A stretch of 6,029 nt of DNA from a virus, in the IMG/VR virus record IMGVR_UViG_3300045988_004635, positions 1 to 6,029 of that record; one strand, 5' to 3'. Below are positions 327-6,029 of this stretch, piece after piece; the stretch's first letter is position 1, and every line of letters starts with the position of its first letter. The position numbers were made by a program, and so were the translations under genes. A model generated the notes under the pieces. It searched no databases. It saw nothing but the letters and a program-made list of their open reading frames with translations, and was not told where the DNA came from.

Positions 327-403
327 GCCTTTTCGGCGCTGTTGTTCGCAAGCTCACAAGCGCCGTATATTATATAACTTGTTGTAGCCGTAGTAGTAGA
401 GAC

Positions 404-412
404 TGTGGAAAA
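404..412 (-). promoter_or_regulatory. DnaA-box-like 9-mer TGTGGAAAA, the reverse complement of TTTTCCACA. It fits the relaxed consensus TTWTNCACA.
   Basis: Exact 9-mer, repeated at 541-549. Each copy is followed by a similar ..TG(T)TGAWAAC context. Confidence 0.35.
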
Positions 413-540
413 GTTGATAACAGTAAAAATTATCCGTTATCACGTTATTTTTAAGAGAAATCACTAGTTGAAAGTCTTGTTAAAAACTTGTTGAAATGTT
501 AAAAGTTAGTCAAAATGACGAAAATCGTTGTGCAACATTT

Positions 541-549
541 TGTGGAAAA
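541..549 (-). promoter_or_regulatory. Second DnaA-box-like 9-mer TGTGGAAAA, immediately upstream of the tandem iterons.
   Basis: Identical to 404-412 and fits TTWTNCACA on the - strand. Confidence 0.35.
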
Positions 550-550
550 C

Positions 551-577
551 CTGTTGAAACTGTTGAAACTGTTGAAA
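551..577. repeat. Three perfect tandem copies of the 9-bp unit CTGTTGAAA (551-559, 560-568, 569-577). This is an iteron-like array.
   Basis: Read directly. Degenerate copies lie upstream: TAGTTGAAA 465-473, TTGTTAAAA 477-485, TTGTTGAAA 488-496. CTGTTG also occurs at 339-344. Confidence 0.9.
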
Positions 578-718
578 ACGCGCAAGCGCGCAAGGAGTGG
601 ATTTAGCCGAGCTCCGCGTTCGCTGCGCACGGCAAGGCGCTAAAGCGCCATTCAAAACAAAGGAACAAAACCAGATTACAAGAGAAGGTTACAAATATAT
701 TACAAAACAACAAAACTA

Positions 719-1869: not shown

Positions 1870-2109
1870 ATGAAACACAACTACTACGGAATCTGGGACA
1901 GTGTAGCAAAATGTTACGCATGGGTTGGTGAGAGCAAGAACGATGCAACCTTTGCGCGTATGTGCAACGTGATGGCAAAGGACGAAAAAACCTTCATTGG
2001 GCAGAGCCCGCAGGACTACACCGGCTTTAAGCTGGCAGAATTCGAAGACGAGACGGGACTTTTCCAGAACTGGAAAGAAAAAGTATGGGAGGGCAAGCCG
2101 AATGAATAA
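1870..2109 (+). CDS. Conserved small non-structural protein of gokushovirus-like Microviridae, 79 aa.
   Basis: AAAGGAG (1856-1862) lies 7 nt before the ATG. The pattern YGIWDSVA..Y....KND..FAR.....KT.IG.SPQDY..F.L.EFEDETGLF resembles the family pattern (..I.D.KA..F...F...ND..A.R.F....PEDF.L..IG.FDD.TG) as I recall it. Confidence 0.78.
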   Translation: MKHNYYGIWDSVAKCYAWVGESKNDATFARMCNVMAKDEKTFIGQSPQDYTGFKLAEFEDETGLFQNWKEKVWEGKPNE

Positions 2110-2509
2110 ACGATACGAGGAAGGGCGAAAGCCCTTCTTTTCGGATGCAGGCGAAAACGAACGAAAGCAGTACGTCTGGGCAAAAGACGAAAACGGCGAA
2201 GAATACCTTCAAGAGACAGCATCTATCGACATTCAGGCTGAAATCGAAAGCTATGCAGACGAGTGTGATATTAAAAACATCGTGCGGAAAGCAAGTTTCG
2301 ACCCGGAATTTCTGAAAAGTCTATCACAAGGCGCAATAACCACAGAGGAAACGCCAATCACAGACATCACGGAATTTCCGCAGAATATCCACGAGTATCA
2401 CCAGATGATGGCAACGGCACAGGCAAAAGCCATGGAGCTGGCAAAGCTACAGGAGATGGCAAAAACAGAGCCTAAACCGAAAACCGAAGCAAAGGAGGAA
2501 GAACAGTGA
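2102..2509 (+). CDS. VP3: Internal scaffolding protein VP3, 135 aa.
   Basis: ATG at 2102 is 9 nt after GGAGG (2088-2092) and overlaps the previous stop (ATGAATAA). It contains the ECDIKNIVRK motif typical of gokushovirus VP3 (..ECDI.NI..) and has an acidic/Lys-rich tail. The 35-codon upstream extension in the track (from 1997) has no Shine-Dalgarno and lies inside the previous gene. Confidence 0.8.
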   Translation: MNKRYEEGRKPFFSDAGENERKQYVWAKDENGEEYLQETASIDIQAEIESYADECDIKNIVRKASFDPEFLKSLSQGAITTEETPITDITEFPQNIHEYHQMMATAQAKAMELAKLQEMAKTEPKPKTEAKEEEQ

Positions 2510-4215
2510 ACAGAAACAACGAAAGACGCTTTCTGAATGTGCCACAGATGCACACAAGCAGAACGCGTTTTAACCGTGACCAGACGATTTTAACCACGTT
2601 TGACAGCGGCAAACTTATCCCGTTTTTCGTAGATGAAGTGTTGCCGGGCGACACTTTCCAAATCGACACAAGCGCGATCATCCGAATGACCACGCCTAAG
2701 TATCCGGTCATGGATGATGCGTTCATAGACTTCTACTACTTCTATTGTCCAAACAGAATCCTGTGGGATGACTTCAAATACTTCATGGGAGAAGTAGAGG
2801 ACAAGCCATGGGCACCGACCAAAGATTACAGAGTACCGGAACTAGCATGCATTGGAAGTGAAAAAAACCCAGTGCCATACGAAAGAAGCATTCTAGACTA
2901 TATGGGAGTGCCAACAAAAATCAAAAAAGAATTCAGAATAAACGCGCTGCCGGTACGAGCCTATGTAAAAATCTGGAATGAATACTTCAGAGATGAAAAC
3001 GTAGAAAACAGAGCAGTGCTAGTAACAGCTGGACAAGATGAAGCATACCAGGATTCATACAGTGCAGCATACCCAACTCCAGGCACAAAAGAAAATCTGG
3101 ACGATACGCTTAAAAAAGCATACACCGGTGGACGATGCTTGCCAGTAAACAAGTTCCATGACTACTTCACAAGCTGTTTACCTTATCCGCAGAGAGGGCC
3201 GGAAGTAACATTACCGTTAGGTGGTAACGCACCGGTTGGATTGTATAAAGACACAGCGCTAACACAGTTTGGAACGGTAGGAGGACACGCGGGAATTTAT
3301 TTGAACCAGACGCTAAGCGGAAGCGCACTTGCACCAAATATCGGTAACAGCCAAAACGAAAACTACAAAGGATATGCGCTAGTAGCAGGCAGTTCAGACC
3401 CGACAAATCAAGTAAACGACACGGCCTATTTAGGTGCAGATCTGACAAGGGTAACCGCAGCAACAATCAACGACTTGCGAAATGCTGTTGCAGTGCAGCA
3501 GTACTACGAAGCCCTGGCGCGCGGTGGCAGCAGGTATCGCGAACAGATACAGGCACTATGGAACGTCACAATCAGCGACAAAACGGTACAGATTCCCGAA
3601 TATTTGGGCGGTGGACGCTATCACATCAACATGAATCAGATTGTTCAGACGAGCAGCCAGCAAAACGAAACAGATACACCCATCGGCGAAACTGGCGCAA
3701 TGTCAGTAACACCGGTAAATGAAAGCAGTTTCACAAAATCGTTCGAGGAGCACGGCTTTGTAATCGGTGTAATGTGTGTTCGTCATAATCACAGCTACCA
3801 GCAGGGACTTGAGCGTTTCTGGAGCAGAAGAGACAGACTAGACTACTATGTACCACAGTTTGCAAACCTTGGCGAGCAGCCTGTAAAGAAAAAGGAAATC
3901 ATGCTGACCGGTAACAAGTCAGACGAAGAAACATTCGGCTATCAGGAAGCATGGGCAGAATACCGGATGAAACCAAACCGTGTAAGCGGGCTTATGAGAA
4001 GCAACGCAACAGGATCTCTGGACTTCTGGCACTATGCAGACAACTATTCAACCGTGCCGACACTGTCGCAAGGCTGGATGGTAGAAGGAAAGGACGAAAT
4101 CGCAAGAACGCTCATCGTTCAAGACGAACCGCAGTTCTTCGGAGCAATCCGCGTAGCAAACAAAACTACCCGTTGTATGCCGCTGTACAGCGTACCGGGG
4201 CTGTACAAACTGTAA
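2506..4215 (+). CDS. VP1: Major capsid protein VP1 (Microviridae F-type jelly-roll), 569 aa.
   Basis: Hallmark motifs: TTFDSGKLIPFFVDEVLPGDTF, YFYCPNRILWD, RAYVKIWNEYFRD, TINDLRNAVAVQQYYEALARGGSRY, GFVIGVMCVR. The GTG start at 2506 is 7 nt after AAGGAGG (2492-2498) and overlaps the VP3 stop as GTGA. Confidence 0.97.
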   Translation: MNRNNERRFLNVPQMHTSRTRFNRDQTILTTFDSGKLIPFFVDEVLPGDTFQIDTSAIIRMTTPKYPVMDDAFIDFYYFYCPNRILWDDFKYFMGEVEDKPWAPTKDYRVPELACIGSEKNPVPYERSILDYMGVPTKIKKEFRINALPVRAYVKIWNEYFRDENVENRAVLVTAGQDEAYQDSYSAAYPTPGTKENLDDTLKKAYTGGRCLPVNKFHDYFTSCLPYPQRGPEVTLPLGGNAPVGLYKDTALTQFGTVGGHAGIYLNQTLSGSALAPNIGNSQNENYKGYALVAGSSDPTNQVNDTAYLGADLTRVTAATINDLRNAVAVQQYYEALARGGSRYREQIQALWNVTISDKTVQIPEYLGGGRYHINMNQIVQTSSQQNETDTPIGETGAMSVTPVNESSFTKSFEEHGFVIGVMCVRHNHSYQQGLERFWSRRDRLDYYVPQFANLGEQPVKKKEIMLTGNKSDEETFGYQEAWAEYRMKPNRVSGLMRSNATGSLDFWHYADNYSTVPTLSQGWMVEGKDEIARTLIVQDEPQFFGAIRVANKTTRCMPLYSVPGLYKL

Positions 4216-4254: not shown

Positions 4255-5130
4255 ATGGCAGCCTTATCAACATTCTTAACCGCACTCAACATAGCGGGAA
4301 ACGTTGCAAACACGGTTGGAACATTCGCAAATGCTGGAAAACAAATCGCAGGAGCATTTGGAGGATGGGGGCAAACAGGCAACAGCCAAAGCAGCGGAGG
4401 AAGCACACAGCAAGGCGGTGGACACTCTGAAAGCGGAAGTCAATCAGGAACAAACGTGCAGCAGGTTGATGACTGGCTTAAACAGGCATATGCATACCAA
4501 GGACAAGAAAGCGCCATGCAGGGCAAATACAACAGCCAAAGTATGTTAAAACAGATGGGATACAACACCTTACAAGCAATTATGCAGGGCGTATACAATC
4601 ACATCGAAAATAGCGTAGCCATGAACTACAACAGTGCAGAAGCACTAGCAAACAGAGAATGGCAAGAACATATGTCAAACACGGCATATCAGAGAGCCGT
4701 AGAGGACATGAAAAAAGCAGGGATTAACCCAATACTTGCATTTGCAAACGGAGGAGCAAGCACACCGGGAGGAAGTGCAGGAACAATCAGCGGAACAAGT
4801 ATGGGGCTGGCAAGCAGCAGCGCACTTGGAGTAAGTCGAAGCGGAGGATTTGTACCAAACGCATACGAAAGCTCTAGTTGGTCACAAAGTGACTGGTTTA
4901 ATGCCGCGCAAAGCTGGCAACAGATGCTCAGCACAACACAAATGACACCTTACGGACTACAGAAAGCCTTAACCGAAATCGGAGACGACACCGGAAAAGC
5001 AATCCAAAAGAGCGTAAAGACCAATACAAAAATCCAAGGAAACACACACGGAAACAGACAAACCGAAATGAGACAAGACAAAACTGGAAGCTATGGTGAA
5101 AAAAGAAAGCCGGGTGACTATTTAAGGTGA
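4255..5130 (+). CDS. VP2: Minor capsid / DNA pilot protein VP2, 291 aa.
   Basis: Hydrophobic N-terminus and Gly/Ser/Gln-rich linkers. It has the conserved core REWQEHMSNTAYQRAVEDMKKAGINPILAF, characteristic of microvirus VP2. It lies directly after VP1. Confidence 0.9.
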   Translation: MAALSTFLTALNIAGNVANTVGTFANAGKQIAGAFGGWGQTGNSQSSGGSTQQGGGHSESGSQSGTNVQQVDDWLKQAYAYQGQESAMQGKYNSQSMLKQMGYNTLQAIMQGVYNHIENSVAMNYNSAEALANREWQEHMSNTAYQRAVEDMKKAGINPILAFANGGASTPGGSAGTISGTSMGLASSSALGVSRSGGFVPNAYESSSWSQSDWFNAAQSWQQMLSTTQMTPYGLQKALTEIGDDTGKAIQKSVKTNTKIQGNTHGNRQTEMRQDKTGSYGEKRKPGDYLR

Positions 5131-6029
5131 GTTGTTACAAGCCATTAATAAGGCTGTACAATCCCGAAAACAAAGAAATAAGCGGGCGGGTGTATTCACT
5201 CGCCCGTTTTTCAGAAATATCGGGAAAACAGCTAAAATATGAAGATTTAATGTACAGAAAAGATGTAATGTTGATACCATGCGGGCAATGCATCGGATGT
5301 AGAATCAGACAACGCGAGGACTGGACAACACGCATAGAGTTAGAAGCAAGAGATTATCCAAGGGAAGAAGTATGGTTTATTACACTAACCTATGATGATG
5401 ATCACGTACCGGGTATGATAATCGAGACAGGCGAAATCATGCGAAAAGTGCAATACGTCTGGAAACCGAATAAGAAGCGTCCTGAAAGCGTCCAAACGTT
5501 GCTATATACTGACGTTCAAAAATTCTTAAAACGTCTCAGAAAGGCTTACAGGGGCAAATTACGCTATTTTGTAGCGGGAGAATACGGAGAGCAGACAGCA
5601 AGACCGCATTACCACATGATACTATACGGATGGCAACCGACAGACCTAGAAAATCTATACAAGATACACCACAACGGATACTATACTAGTAAATGGTTAG
5701 CAGACCTATGGGGCATGGGTCAGATACAGATAGCACAAGCAGTACCAGAAACATATAGATATGTTGCAGGGTATGTAACCAAAAAAATGTATGAAATAGA
5801 CGGAAAGAAAGGAAATGAATATTATGAACTAGGGCAGCAAAAACCGTTCGCTTGTATGAGCCTTAAACCAGGTCTAGGAGATAACTATTACAAAAAACAC
5901 AAGGCCGAAATCTGGAAGCAAGGCTACATCCAATGTACAAACGGAAAGCACGCACAGATACCACGCTATTACGAAAAGATGATGGAAGCTGAAAACCCAC
6001 AAAGGTTGTGGAGAATTAAGCAGAACAGA
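5127..6029 (+). CDS. VP4: Replication initiation protein VP4 (HUH rolling-circle endonuclease), N-terminal 301 codons. It is open at the window edge and completed by 1..172.
   Basis: No stop codon from 5118 to 6029 in this frame (translated by hand). N-terminus is (M)SCYKPLIRLYNP. Other motifs: CGQCIGCR; motif I FITLTY (5376-5393); HUH motif RPHYHMILYG (HYH at 5607-5615); two-tyrosine motif YVAGYVTKK (5760-5786), compare phiX174 A protein YVAKYVNK. The GTG start at 5127 overlaps the VP2 stop as GTGA. An in-frame TGA at 5115-5117 bounds the frame upstream. Confidence 0.93.
   Translation, partial: MSCYKPLIRLYNPENKEISGRVYSLARFSEISGKQLKYEDLMYRKDVMLIPCGQCIGCRIRQREDWTTRIELEARDYPREEVWFITLTYDDDHVPGMIIETGEIMRKVQYVWKPNKKRPESVQTLLYTDVQKFLKRLRKAYRGKLRYFVAGEYGEQTARPHYHMILYGWQPTDLENLYKIHHNGYYTSKWLADLWGMGQIQIAQAVPETYRYVAGYVTKKMYEIDGKKGNEYYELGQQKPFACMSLKPGLGDNYYKKHKAEIWKQGYIQCTNGKHAQIPRYYEKMMEAENPQRLWRIKQNR
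5183..5211 (+). terminator. Intrinsic-terminator-like hairpin inside the rep coding sequence: a 10-bp stem (one G-T/G-U wobble), loop TATT, then TTTTT.
   Basis: CGGGCGGGTG (5183-5192) pairs with CACTCGCCCG (5197-5206). T-run is at 5207-5211. It lies 57-85 nt downstream of the rep start and the VP2 stop. Confidence 0.6.
5975..6029. repeat. Right copy of the 55-nt terminal direct repeat, identical to 1-55.
   Basis: Same comparison as for 1-55. Confidence 0.95.

Follow-up and report, generated by a model that had tools for sequence, protein, structure and literature searches.

A gokushovirus genome carries tandem repeats that are probably host-type DnaA boxes in a compact look-alike of an Oscillospirales chromosome origin

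Several mobile replicons borrow the DnaA protein of their host, among them P1 oriR, F, pSC101 and RK2, and so does the ABC primosome at its 'A site', a hairpin with a DnaA box. These pair a few boxes with the iterons of their own initiator or with a hairpin, and among the DnaA-assisted origins of plasmids and phage-plasmids we know of none described with a DnaA-trio module and of none that is a microvirus. Microviridae replication is taught from phiX174, with a nick by Rep, the host Rep helicase and the PriA primosome. In the chromosome origin of Bacillus subtilis, the basal unwinding system (BUS) reportedly consists of the incC DnaA-boxes #6 and #7, a GC spacer, DnaA-trios and an A/T-rich region (Richardson 2016, 2019; Pelliciari 2021, 2023). 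More generally, in a BUS one or more DnaA boxes are separated by a short spacer from a run of three or more DnaA-trios (3'-GAT-5', of which the middle A is conserved), and the unwinding region lies beyond these trios; a BUS is searched for as a box with no more than two mismatches, a spacer of 0-16 and at least three repeats of NAN (PMC8287927). The triplet 5'-TAG-3' corresponds to the DnaA-trio 3'-GAT-5' (PMC8287927, PMC7561715). In the top strand of Clostridioides difficile oriC2, three boxes are followed by 5'-CACCTACTACTATTACTACTATGA-3', after which comes the unwinding element (PMC7561715).

The DNA analyzed here (IMG/VR record IMGVR_UViG_3300045988_004635, 6,029 nucleotides, in its full length referred to as the window) represents a single circular gokushovirus genome, 5974 nt in length. 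It bears an exact 55-nt terminal duplication (1-55 and 5975-6029), which is an assembler k-mer overlap; IMG/VR classes the record under direct terminal repeats. All genes lie on the + strand, VP4 closes at 339-340 codons across the junction, and 173-776 is non-coding. Within this non-coding region, about 195 nt downstream of the VP4 stop and between VP4 and the accessory genes, lies the cassette whose parts are compiled in Table 1. No Rfam match was obtained in the cassette region that would indicate a structured RNA. Elsewhere in the genome, some 50 nt into the VP4 gene, GCGGGCGGG...CUCGCCCG forms a strong G/C hairpin that precedes UUUUU and resembles a terminator or an attenuator; it causes a sub-threshold Rfam match to Termite-leu at 5177-5262 on the + strand (27.3 bits, gathering score 51).

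Table 1. Features of the cassette, of the genome that carries it and of a related clade (coordinates are those of the window)
Feature	Position	Strand	Basis or remark
Whole conserved non-coding cassette (oriC-like module), about 212 bp	368-579	+	Alignment; exact in-place inversion in relatives
A/T-only tract TATATTATATAA at the position of a DNA-unwinding element, distal to the trinucleotide run	366-377	.	Sequence reading
Trinucleotide run TTG TTG TAG CCG TAG TAG TAG	379-399	+	Near-maximal conservation
4-nt spacer AGAC between trios and proximal box	400-403	+	Exactly 4 nt in the 61 strictly matching elements
Proximal DnaA box TGTGGAAAA; its reverse complement TTTTCCACA fits TTWTNCACA	404-412	+	
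Second, weaker tandem box AGTTGATAA	412-420	+	GTTGAAAA or GTTGAATA in relatives
Four-box cluster: 466-473 AGTTGAAA, 478-485 TGTTAAAA, 489-496 TGTTGAAA, 497-504 TGTTAAAA	466-504	+	
Conserved spacer with TGACGAA (516-522) and TTGTGCAAC (528-536)	505-540	+	
Box TGTGGAAAA preceding the tandem array	541-549	+	
Three abutting 9-nt boxes CTGTTGAAA, cores at 552, 561 and 570	551-577	+	Same pattern in host dnaA-dnaN spacers
VP4/Rep gene	5127-6029, on to 56-172 past the 55-nt overlap	+	Pfam PF23343, phrog_942
M15 peptidase gene		+	
Gene for ORF5-like DNA-binding protein	1870-2109	+	
VP3 scaffold gene		+	
VP1 capsid gene		+	
VP2 pilot gene		+	
Inverted and relocated cassette of a deep clade (L014, L046, L061, L066, L069, L072, L074, L092, L094, L100, L104)			

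At 551-577, Tandem Repeats Finder returned a period of 9 with 3.0 copies, 100% matches and the unit CTGTTGAAA, and thus reproduced the perfect 27-nt array that had been claimed in an earlier note on this DNA. The near-copies named there are likewise present, at 465-473 (TAGTTGAAA, 7/9), 477-485 (TTGTTAAAA, 7/9) and 488-496 (TTGTTGAAA, 8/9). Two upstream seeds fared differently: CTTGTTG at 378 lies inside the conserved element and constitutes the TTG TTG of the trinucleotide run, whereas the seed at 339 falls outside the conserved block and is probably due to chance. The 8-nt core TGTTGAAA, searched with up to one mismatch, gave 14 matches in the window, nine of them within 404-577 and all on the + strand (starts at 404, 466, 478, 489, 497, 541, 552, 561 and 570). 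The largest same-strand cluster per 180 nt in 1000 dinucleotide-preserving shuffles contained three matches compared with the nine observed, and four exact copies stand against 0.33 expected on both strands. In full, the proximal part of the element reads TATATTATATAAC TTG TTG TAG CCG TAG TAG TAG-AGAC-TGTGGAAAA GTTGATAAC, and the distal part is made up of TGTGGAAAAC and then three TGTTGAAA. In relatives, the four-box cluster consists of TGTTGAAA, TGTTGATA or perfect TGTGGATAA at a spacing of 12, 11 and 8. As a separate observation, TGACGAA in the spacer sits in a small inverted repeat, CGTCAAAATGACG, and matches the Spo0A-box pattern TGNCGAA.

The proximal part agrees closely with a BUS. The reverse complement of 366-412, CTTTTCCACA-GTCT-CTACTACTACGGCTACAACAAG-TTATATAATATA, has the order and polarity of C. 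difficile oriC2. Adjacent to the trios, TGTGGAAAA at 404-412 deviates from TTATCCACA in one position, where two are allowed, and a second box follows at 412-420. On the TGTGGATAA strand and 5' of the box, three TAG at 391-399 and one more at 385-387 make up the trios, for which at least three NAN are demanded, and their polarity is that of the host loci and of the published C. difficile sequence. The spacer AGAC has 4 nt, where a G/C-rich spacer of 0-16 bp, about 4 bp, is expected. One trio of the window is CCG, and the A/T region distal to the trios is short, with 12 nt of pure A/T at 366-377 and 60% A+T over 30 nt. Altogether, 80 of 87 phage elements fit the formal BUS search rule, and in 61 of the 61 elements retrieved with a strict pattern the spacer is exactly 4 nt long.

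In order, polarity and spacing, the arrangement 5'-(TAG)n, 4-nt spacer, TGTGGAAAA, second box-3', preceded by a short A/T tract, agrees with the BUS of bacterial oriC (B. subtilis incC, C. difficile oriC2), and it comes close to identity with the dnaA-dnaN modules of Oscillospirales genomes. The differences are that the phage element resides in a 6-kb ssDNA rolling-circle phage and not between dnaA and dnaN, that its A/T tract is shorter, that all boxes point one way and that a putative origin is compressed into 212 bp. Since the BUS of Firmicutes is located in the dnaA-dnaN spacer and the element studied here in a phage genome, we consider it a mimic or derivative rather than a chromosomal origin; it is a new context for, and a compressed form of, the known BUS of Firmicute oriC. 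A search of viral contigs for a BUS with the canonical box, (TAG)3-N4-TGTGGATAA, yielded 17 matches and among these none in a contig of microvirus size, so that a general use of the strategy does not follow from our data.

The closest counterparts were found in bacterial chromosomes. The triple-repeat pattern was compared with one genome per species from 185,579 bacterial and archaeal species, and its matches lay in non-coding DNA of Ruminococcus sp. and Oscillospiraceae assemblies that is crowded with TGTTGAAAA, TGTGGAAAA and their complements. In six assemblies (L162, L170, L171, L181, L209 and L234) the exact triple is positioned between dnaA and dnaN, as confirmed by Pfam (PF00308 and PF08299 for dnaA, three beta-clamp domains for dnaN). 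The host origins carry TTGTGGAAAAC-N5 followed by three TGTTGAAA, just as the window does at 539-577, and near dnaN their spacers run from an A/T-rich stretch through (TAG)4-6 and GGGG to TGTTGAAAC TGTKGAAAAC. The composite TAGTAGTAG-N4-TGTTGAAA-NN-GTKGAA occurs in only 96 DNA stretches among the genomes of the 185,579 species, mostly in genomes labelled Ruminococcus, Oscillospiraceae, Acutalibacteraceae or Clostridia. dnaA and/or dnaN lie within the 8-kb locus in 85 of 95 composite-pattern loci, and wherever both genes are present the pattern is found between them, just upstream of dnaN.

Box usage is equally similar. Twenty-five host spacers contain 347 copies of TGTTGAAA, 74 of TGTGGAAA and three of the canonical TGTGGATA, with a box density of 2.3 per 100 nt in the spacers versus 0.08 in the flanks (28-fold); the 87 phage elements show the same rank order with 6.2, 0.94 and 0.30 copies per element, respectively. 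Compared with Oscillospirales chromosomal origins (the six named above and about 80 more), the cassette is alike in the dominance of TGTTGAAA(A/C) over TGTGGAAAA and in abutting 9-nt tandem arrays, including the exact triple after TGTGGAAAAC. It differs in size and polarity: host spacers span 0.4-1.5 kb and hold 15-40 boxes in both orientations, whereas the 9-10 boxes of the phage all share one orientation (681 forward and 0 reverse in the 87 elements). Over 30 nt at the unwinding position, A+T amounts to 84% in hosts versus 60% in the window.

The trinucleotide run of the host loci is (TAG)3-7 with a 4-nt spacer, mostly GGGG or GGGC, and TTG/GAG variants are mixed into it in some cases (L282, L290). 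In one Ruminococcus origin (L181, reverse complement of 1932-3028, about 215-250), (TTG)5 takes the place of (TAG)n beside the proximal boxes, a trio run that lacks the middle A otherwise believed to be invariant. Because some hosts mix TTG/GAG or use (TTG)5, the TTG TTG of the phage needs no separate explanation. Readings of TATATTATATAACTTG as XerCD/dif-like or phiX-ori-like were abandoned in view of the TTG/TAG runs in the same register in these three host origins.

The host proteins are bona fide DnaA with B. subtilis DnaA in the BUS cryo-EM entry 8BTG as the best PDB match. Their domain-IV recognition helix is peculiar: it reads RDHSTIVY[AS] in Oscillospirales DnaA (L162, L171, L181, L209, L234 and others) as compared with RDHTTVIH in B. 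subtilis and the canonical form RDHTTV(I/L)H. The changed positions are presumably those that contact bases in the E. coli domain IV-DNA structure, Thr435 and His439. Among the loci retrieved, the 23 genomes with RDHSTIVY[AS] have on average 20-25 TGTTGAAA and no more than one TGTGGATA per locus, whereas genomes with the canonical ...TTV.H helix (xDHTTVxH; Companilactobacillus, L279) use TGTGGATA. From this covariation of helix and box we argue that TGTTGAAA is probably the cognate DnaA box of the lineage, which also narrows the predicted phage host. What emerges looks like a lineage-specific pair of DnaA and DnaA box in Oscillospirales; the main oriC box of these genomes is TGTTGAAA and not TGTGGATAA.

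The cassette is widespread in gokushoviruses. With the non-coding region as query, BLASTN matched window positions 367-580 to some 60 GenBank gokushoviruses of faecal origin (human, pig and monkey) at 72-87% identity, and in all of these records the region is without annotation. In an alignment of 15 of these relatives, the 5' part comprises the A/T tract, CTTGTTGTAG-NN-GTAGTAGTAG, 4 nt, TGTKGAAAA GTTGAWAA and a variable stretch of 45 nt, and the 3' part four boxes (12, 11 and 8 nt), a 36-nt spacer with TTGTGCAAC, and TGTGGAAAAC plus two or three abutting TGTTGAAA. When IMG/VR was scanned for the exact triple, it turned up in at least 116 contigs, among them about 98 microviruses of 4-6 kb with VP4 38-96% and VP1 41-89% identical to those of the window. 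A second anchor, ACTTGTTGTAG-NN-GTAGTAGTAG, added 63 further elements with 7-10 boxes each. Anchor matches L373, L399 and L401 as well as triple matches in giant-virus or large contigs were left out as coding repeats. One IMG/VR contig of 10,917 nt (L110) with two VP1 and two VP4 genes (30-92% identity) is a chimeric assembly of two gokushoviruses and not a prophage.

When 87 elements are aligned, the conserved block extends over about 362-578 and AACTTGTTGTAG is nearly invariant. Nine to ten boxes are present in 59 of 64 anchor-selected loci, and the distal tandem has two or three copies. The A/T run measures 12-14 nt in the window's clade and 23-27 nt in other clades; a phage relative may read, for example, TATATAACTTGTTG(TAG)5-GGAG-TGTTGAAAT GTTGAATAC. 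Immediately after the cassette, 579-672 (CGCGCAAG twice, GCCGAGCTCCGC...GCGCACGGC and GGCGCTAAAGCGCC) is conserved in the close clade only, and other clades contain a long stem of another kind, in which the changes are compensatory (e.g. L009/L012 versus L013). The element thus persists in more than 150 gokushovirus genomes with VP4 proteins that are only 38-96% identical, although the apparent conservation is inflated by the fact that most relatives were gathered with patterns from the element itself; nevertheless, the sets collected by BLAST and by anchor agree. If the cassette has spread horizontally in recent times, this could account for part of the high nucleotide conservation across distant VP4 clades.

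Most genomes carry the cassette after VP4, oriented with the gene strand. In three close relatives with VP4 91-92% identical (L054 at 1542-1753, L071 at 4995-5202 and L088 at 33-244), the segment that corresponds exactly to window 368-579 has been turned round in its place, with colinear flanks on either side. In a deep clade (VP4 about 39-44% identical; members in Table 1), the cassette is found between VP2 and VP4 on the opposite strand. The in-place inversion with colinear flanks implies that the cassette is a discrete module which works either way relative to the genes, and this independence of orientation favours a function in duplex DNA and makes a strand-specific signal, be it for priming of the complementary strand or for nicking by Rep, less likely. 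G/C-rich quasi-palindromes on both sides (284-326 and 579-594) could have mediated the flip.

Taken as a whole, the comparison makes it likely that the CTGTTGAAA repeats are host-type DnaA boxes within a 212-bp look-alike of a Ruminococcus/Oscillospiraceae chromosome origin, whose box field they would make up together with another six or seven boxes that all point the same way. Because the core, the triple and the (TAG)n module recur in Oscillospirales dnaA-dnaN origins, host DnaA is the most likely binder, and it is with considerable confidence that we predict its binding to the boxes. The earlier note had offered binding of a host regulator as a fallback, and this was right in spirit, with host DnaA as the probable regulator. 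For productive unwinding or helicase loading at the cassette we see a somewhat better than even chance. On the double-stranded replicative form, host DnaA-ATP would fill the ten boxes, oligomerise from the proximal boxes at 404-420 onto the TAG strand and open the duplex at 366-399, where host helicase and primase would then be loaded. The phage could thereby gain DnaA-dependent duplex replication for amplification or for episomal persistence, while rolling-circle synthesis by VP4/Rep would still provide the progeny single strands. Such a benefit can only be inferred, since the phiX174 paradigm of microvirus replication requires no DnaA.

The same DnaA boxes might instead serve as a decoy or sensor. 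Here, the boxes would bind host DnaA without origin firing, and the high-copy replicative form would titrate DnaA and halt host initiation; in a variant, DnaA would act as a transcription factor that couples phage expression to the replication state of the host. Titration has a classical precedent in the incompatibility exerted by cloned DnaA-box regions of B. subtilis (incA/B/C). Ten boxes per 6-kb genome represent a very high density, the A/T tract in the window's clade is short, and from the cassette it is about 150 nt downstream to the only promoter-like site that precedes the gene block. A decoy that does no more than bind DnaA well could also take the form of a complete BUS-like module. 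However, titration or sensing needs duplex boxes only, yet conservation is highest in (TAG)n, the 4-nt spacing and the A/T tract, and in the inverted clade the location between VP2 and VP4 abolishes any fixed relationship to a promoter. We regard both versions as rather unlikely and, given the strong conservation of trios, exact spacer and A/T tract, prefer unwinding over a sponge.

Much less probable is a role of the repeats as the 'bind' locus of a VP4 rolling-circle origin, comparable to those of pMV158 RepB and of the Reps of geminiviruses and circoviruses, with the conserved TAACTTG (376-382), which resembles the phiX174 cleavage site, as the nick region. Iteron-like elements had been the first proposal for this array, and one half of it stands: these are conserved direct repeats of the protein-binding type in an origin-type element. 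They share with iterons the short tandem direct repeats, all in one orientation, in a rolling-circle element; the cassette adjoins the rep gene in most genomes, and AACTTGTTGTAG is nearly invariant. The other half, Rep/VP4 as the binder, is not supported. Iterons change along with the Rep that binds them and lie beside a nick hairpin, whereas the core of the phage repeats is identical over VP4 proteins of 38-96% identity, and covariation between repeats and Rep, for which relatives were compared, was not detected: box usage is equal in four VP4 classes ranging from 30-43% to >85%. Between 360 and 540 no conserved or significant ssDNA hairpin that might present a nick site was found (z-scores of -0.8 to +0.9 against shuffles, one relative excepted). 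Moreover, repeats, triple and TAG/TTG run are common to bacterial chromosome origins that have no VP4, and the inversion in close relatives would flip the packaged strand.

Just as doubtful, or slightly more so, is recognition by host Spo0A (0A box TGNCGAA) or by a phage protein of the ORF5-like type that also targets the host origin. Spo0A binds oriC in B. subtilis, TGTTGAA is one mismatch away from TGTCGAA, as had been pointed out earlier, and a separate site of the TGNCGAA type (TGACGAA at 516-522 in the window) is present in about half of the related cassettes. In 715 copies of the core, however, T takes the fourth position 631 times, G 82 times and A twice, and the C that the 0A box calls for does not occur there. 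Furthermore, the proximal boxes occupy the exact BUS position beside the trios, and the box variant covaries with the recognition helix of host DnaA. Stacked weak promoters, a further suggestion, found no support either: the promoter scan detected no -10 partner in the array, and the one promoter-like site that precedes the genes lies at 719-747.

That the repeats encode a small basic protein or are neutral slippage noise can practically be dismissed: the ORF at 515-643 (MTKIVVQHFVENLLKLLKLLKTRKRARSG...) is open in the window and its peptide amphipathic and Arg-rich (LLKLLKLLK plus Arg-rich tail), but start, frame and length are not conserved (in-frame ATG missing in 51 of 87 relatives, and ATG also lost in the GenBank relatives L005, L006 and L008; distance to the stop 10 to >43 codons; frame shifted in L009-L012), what varies is the pair of bases between cores, at codon positions 1-2, a Shine-Dalgarno sequence is missing and the cassette is antisense in inverted genomes, while slippage noise, for which an array absent or freely variable in number among relatives had been named as the sign, is contradicted by an element that occurs in all relatives examined and in more than 150 genomes with the box number held.

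Returning to the origin-like reading, our predicted host is an Oscillospirales bacterium that possesses DnaA with the RDHSTIVY helix. A search of bacterial genomes with VP1 found no prophage. A complete gokushovirus contig with the cassette is contained in a metagenome-assembled genome labelled 'Prevotella sp.' (L194, CALBJK010000280.1, 5840 nt); it was not accepted as evidence for a Prevotella host, as it is a free microvirus contig and probably a binning artefact. In the open-access literature we found no description of a DnaA box or an oriC in Microviridae, of DnaA in connection with gokushoviruses or of DnaA-trios in bacteriophages, and where a recent microvirus paper treats intergenic regions, it deals with hairpins only.

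It is an even bet that gut gokushoviruses, in a large group of them, have taken up a functional chromosome origin in miniature, with DnaA boxes, DnaA-trios and an unwinding tract, at which the host initiator opens the duplex form for theta-like replication, and that they use VP4 only for the progeny strands. On the same balance, the cassette would be tuned to the lineage-specific DnaA of Oscillospirales and possibly maintain a persistent episome, with two origins and two initiators in one genome. If true, this life style is one not known in Microviridae, and a complete module of DnaA boxes and DnaA-trios would add either a host-initiator-dependent step or the hijacking of DnaA to the replication of the family. 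Hosts of the abundant Gokushovirinae of human and animal guts are mostly unknown. Since TGTTGAAA dominates only in origins of Ruminococcus, Oscillospiraceae and Acutalibacteraceae with the changed DnaA helix, a testable host prediction results, and the cassette would, if the reading is true, double as a sequence barcode for the host. As a by-product, evidence is provided for a lineage-specific pair of DnaA box and DnaA helix in Oscillospirales, and a portable origin of 212 bp may be of use for vectors in poorly tractable gut anaerobes.
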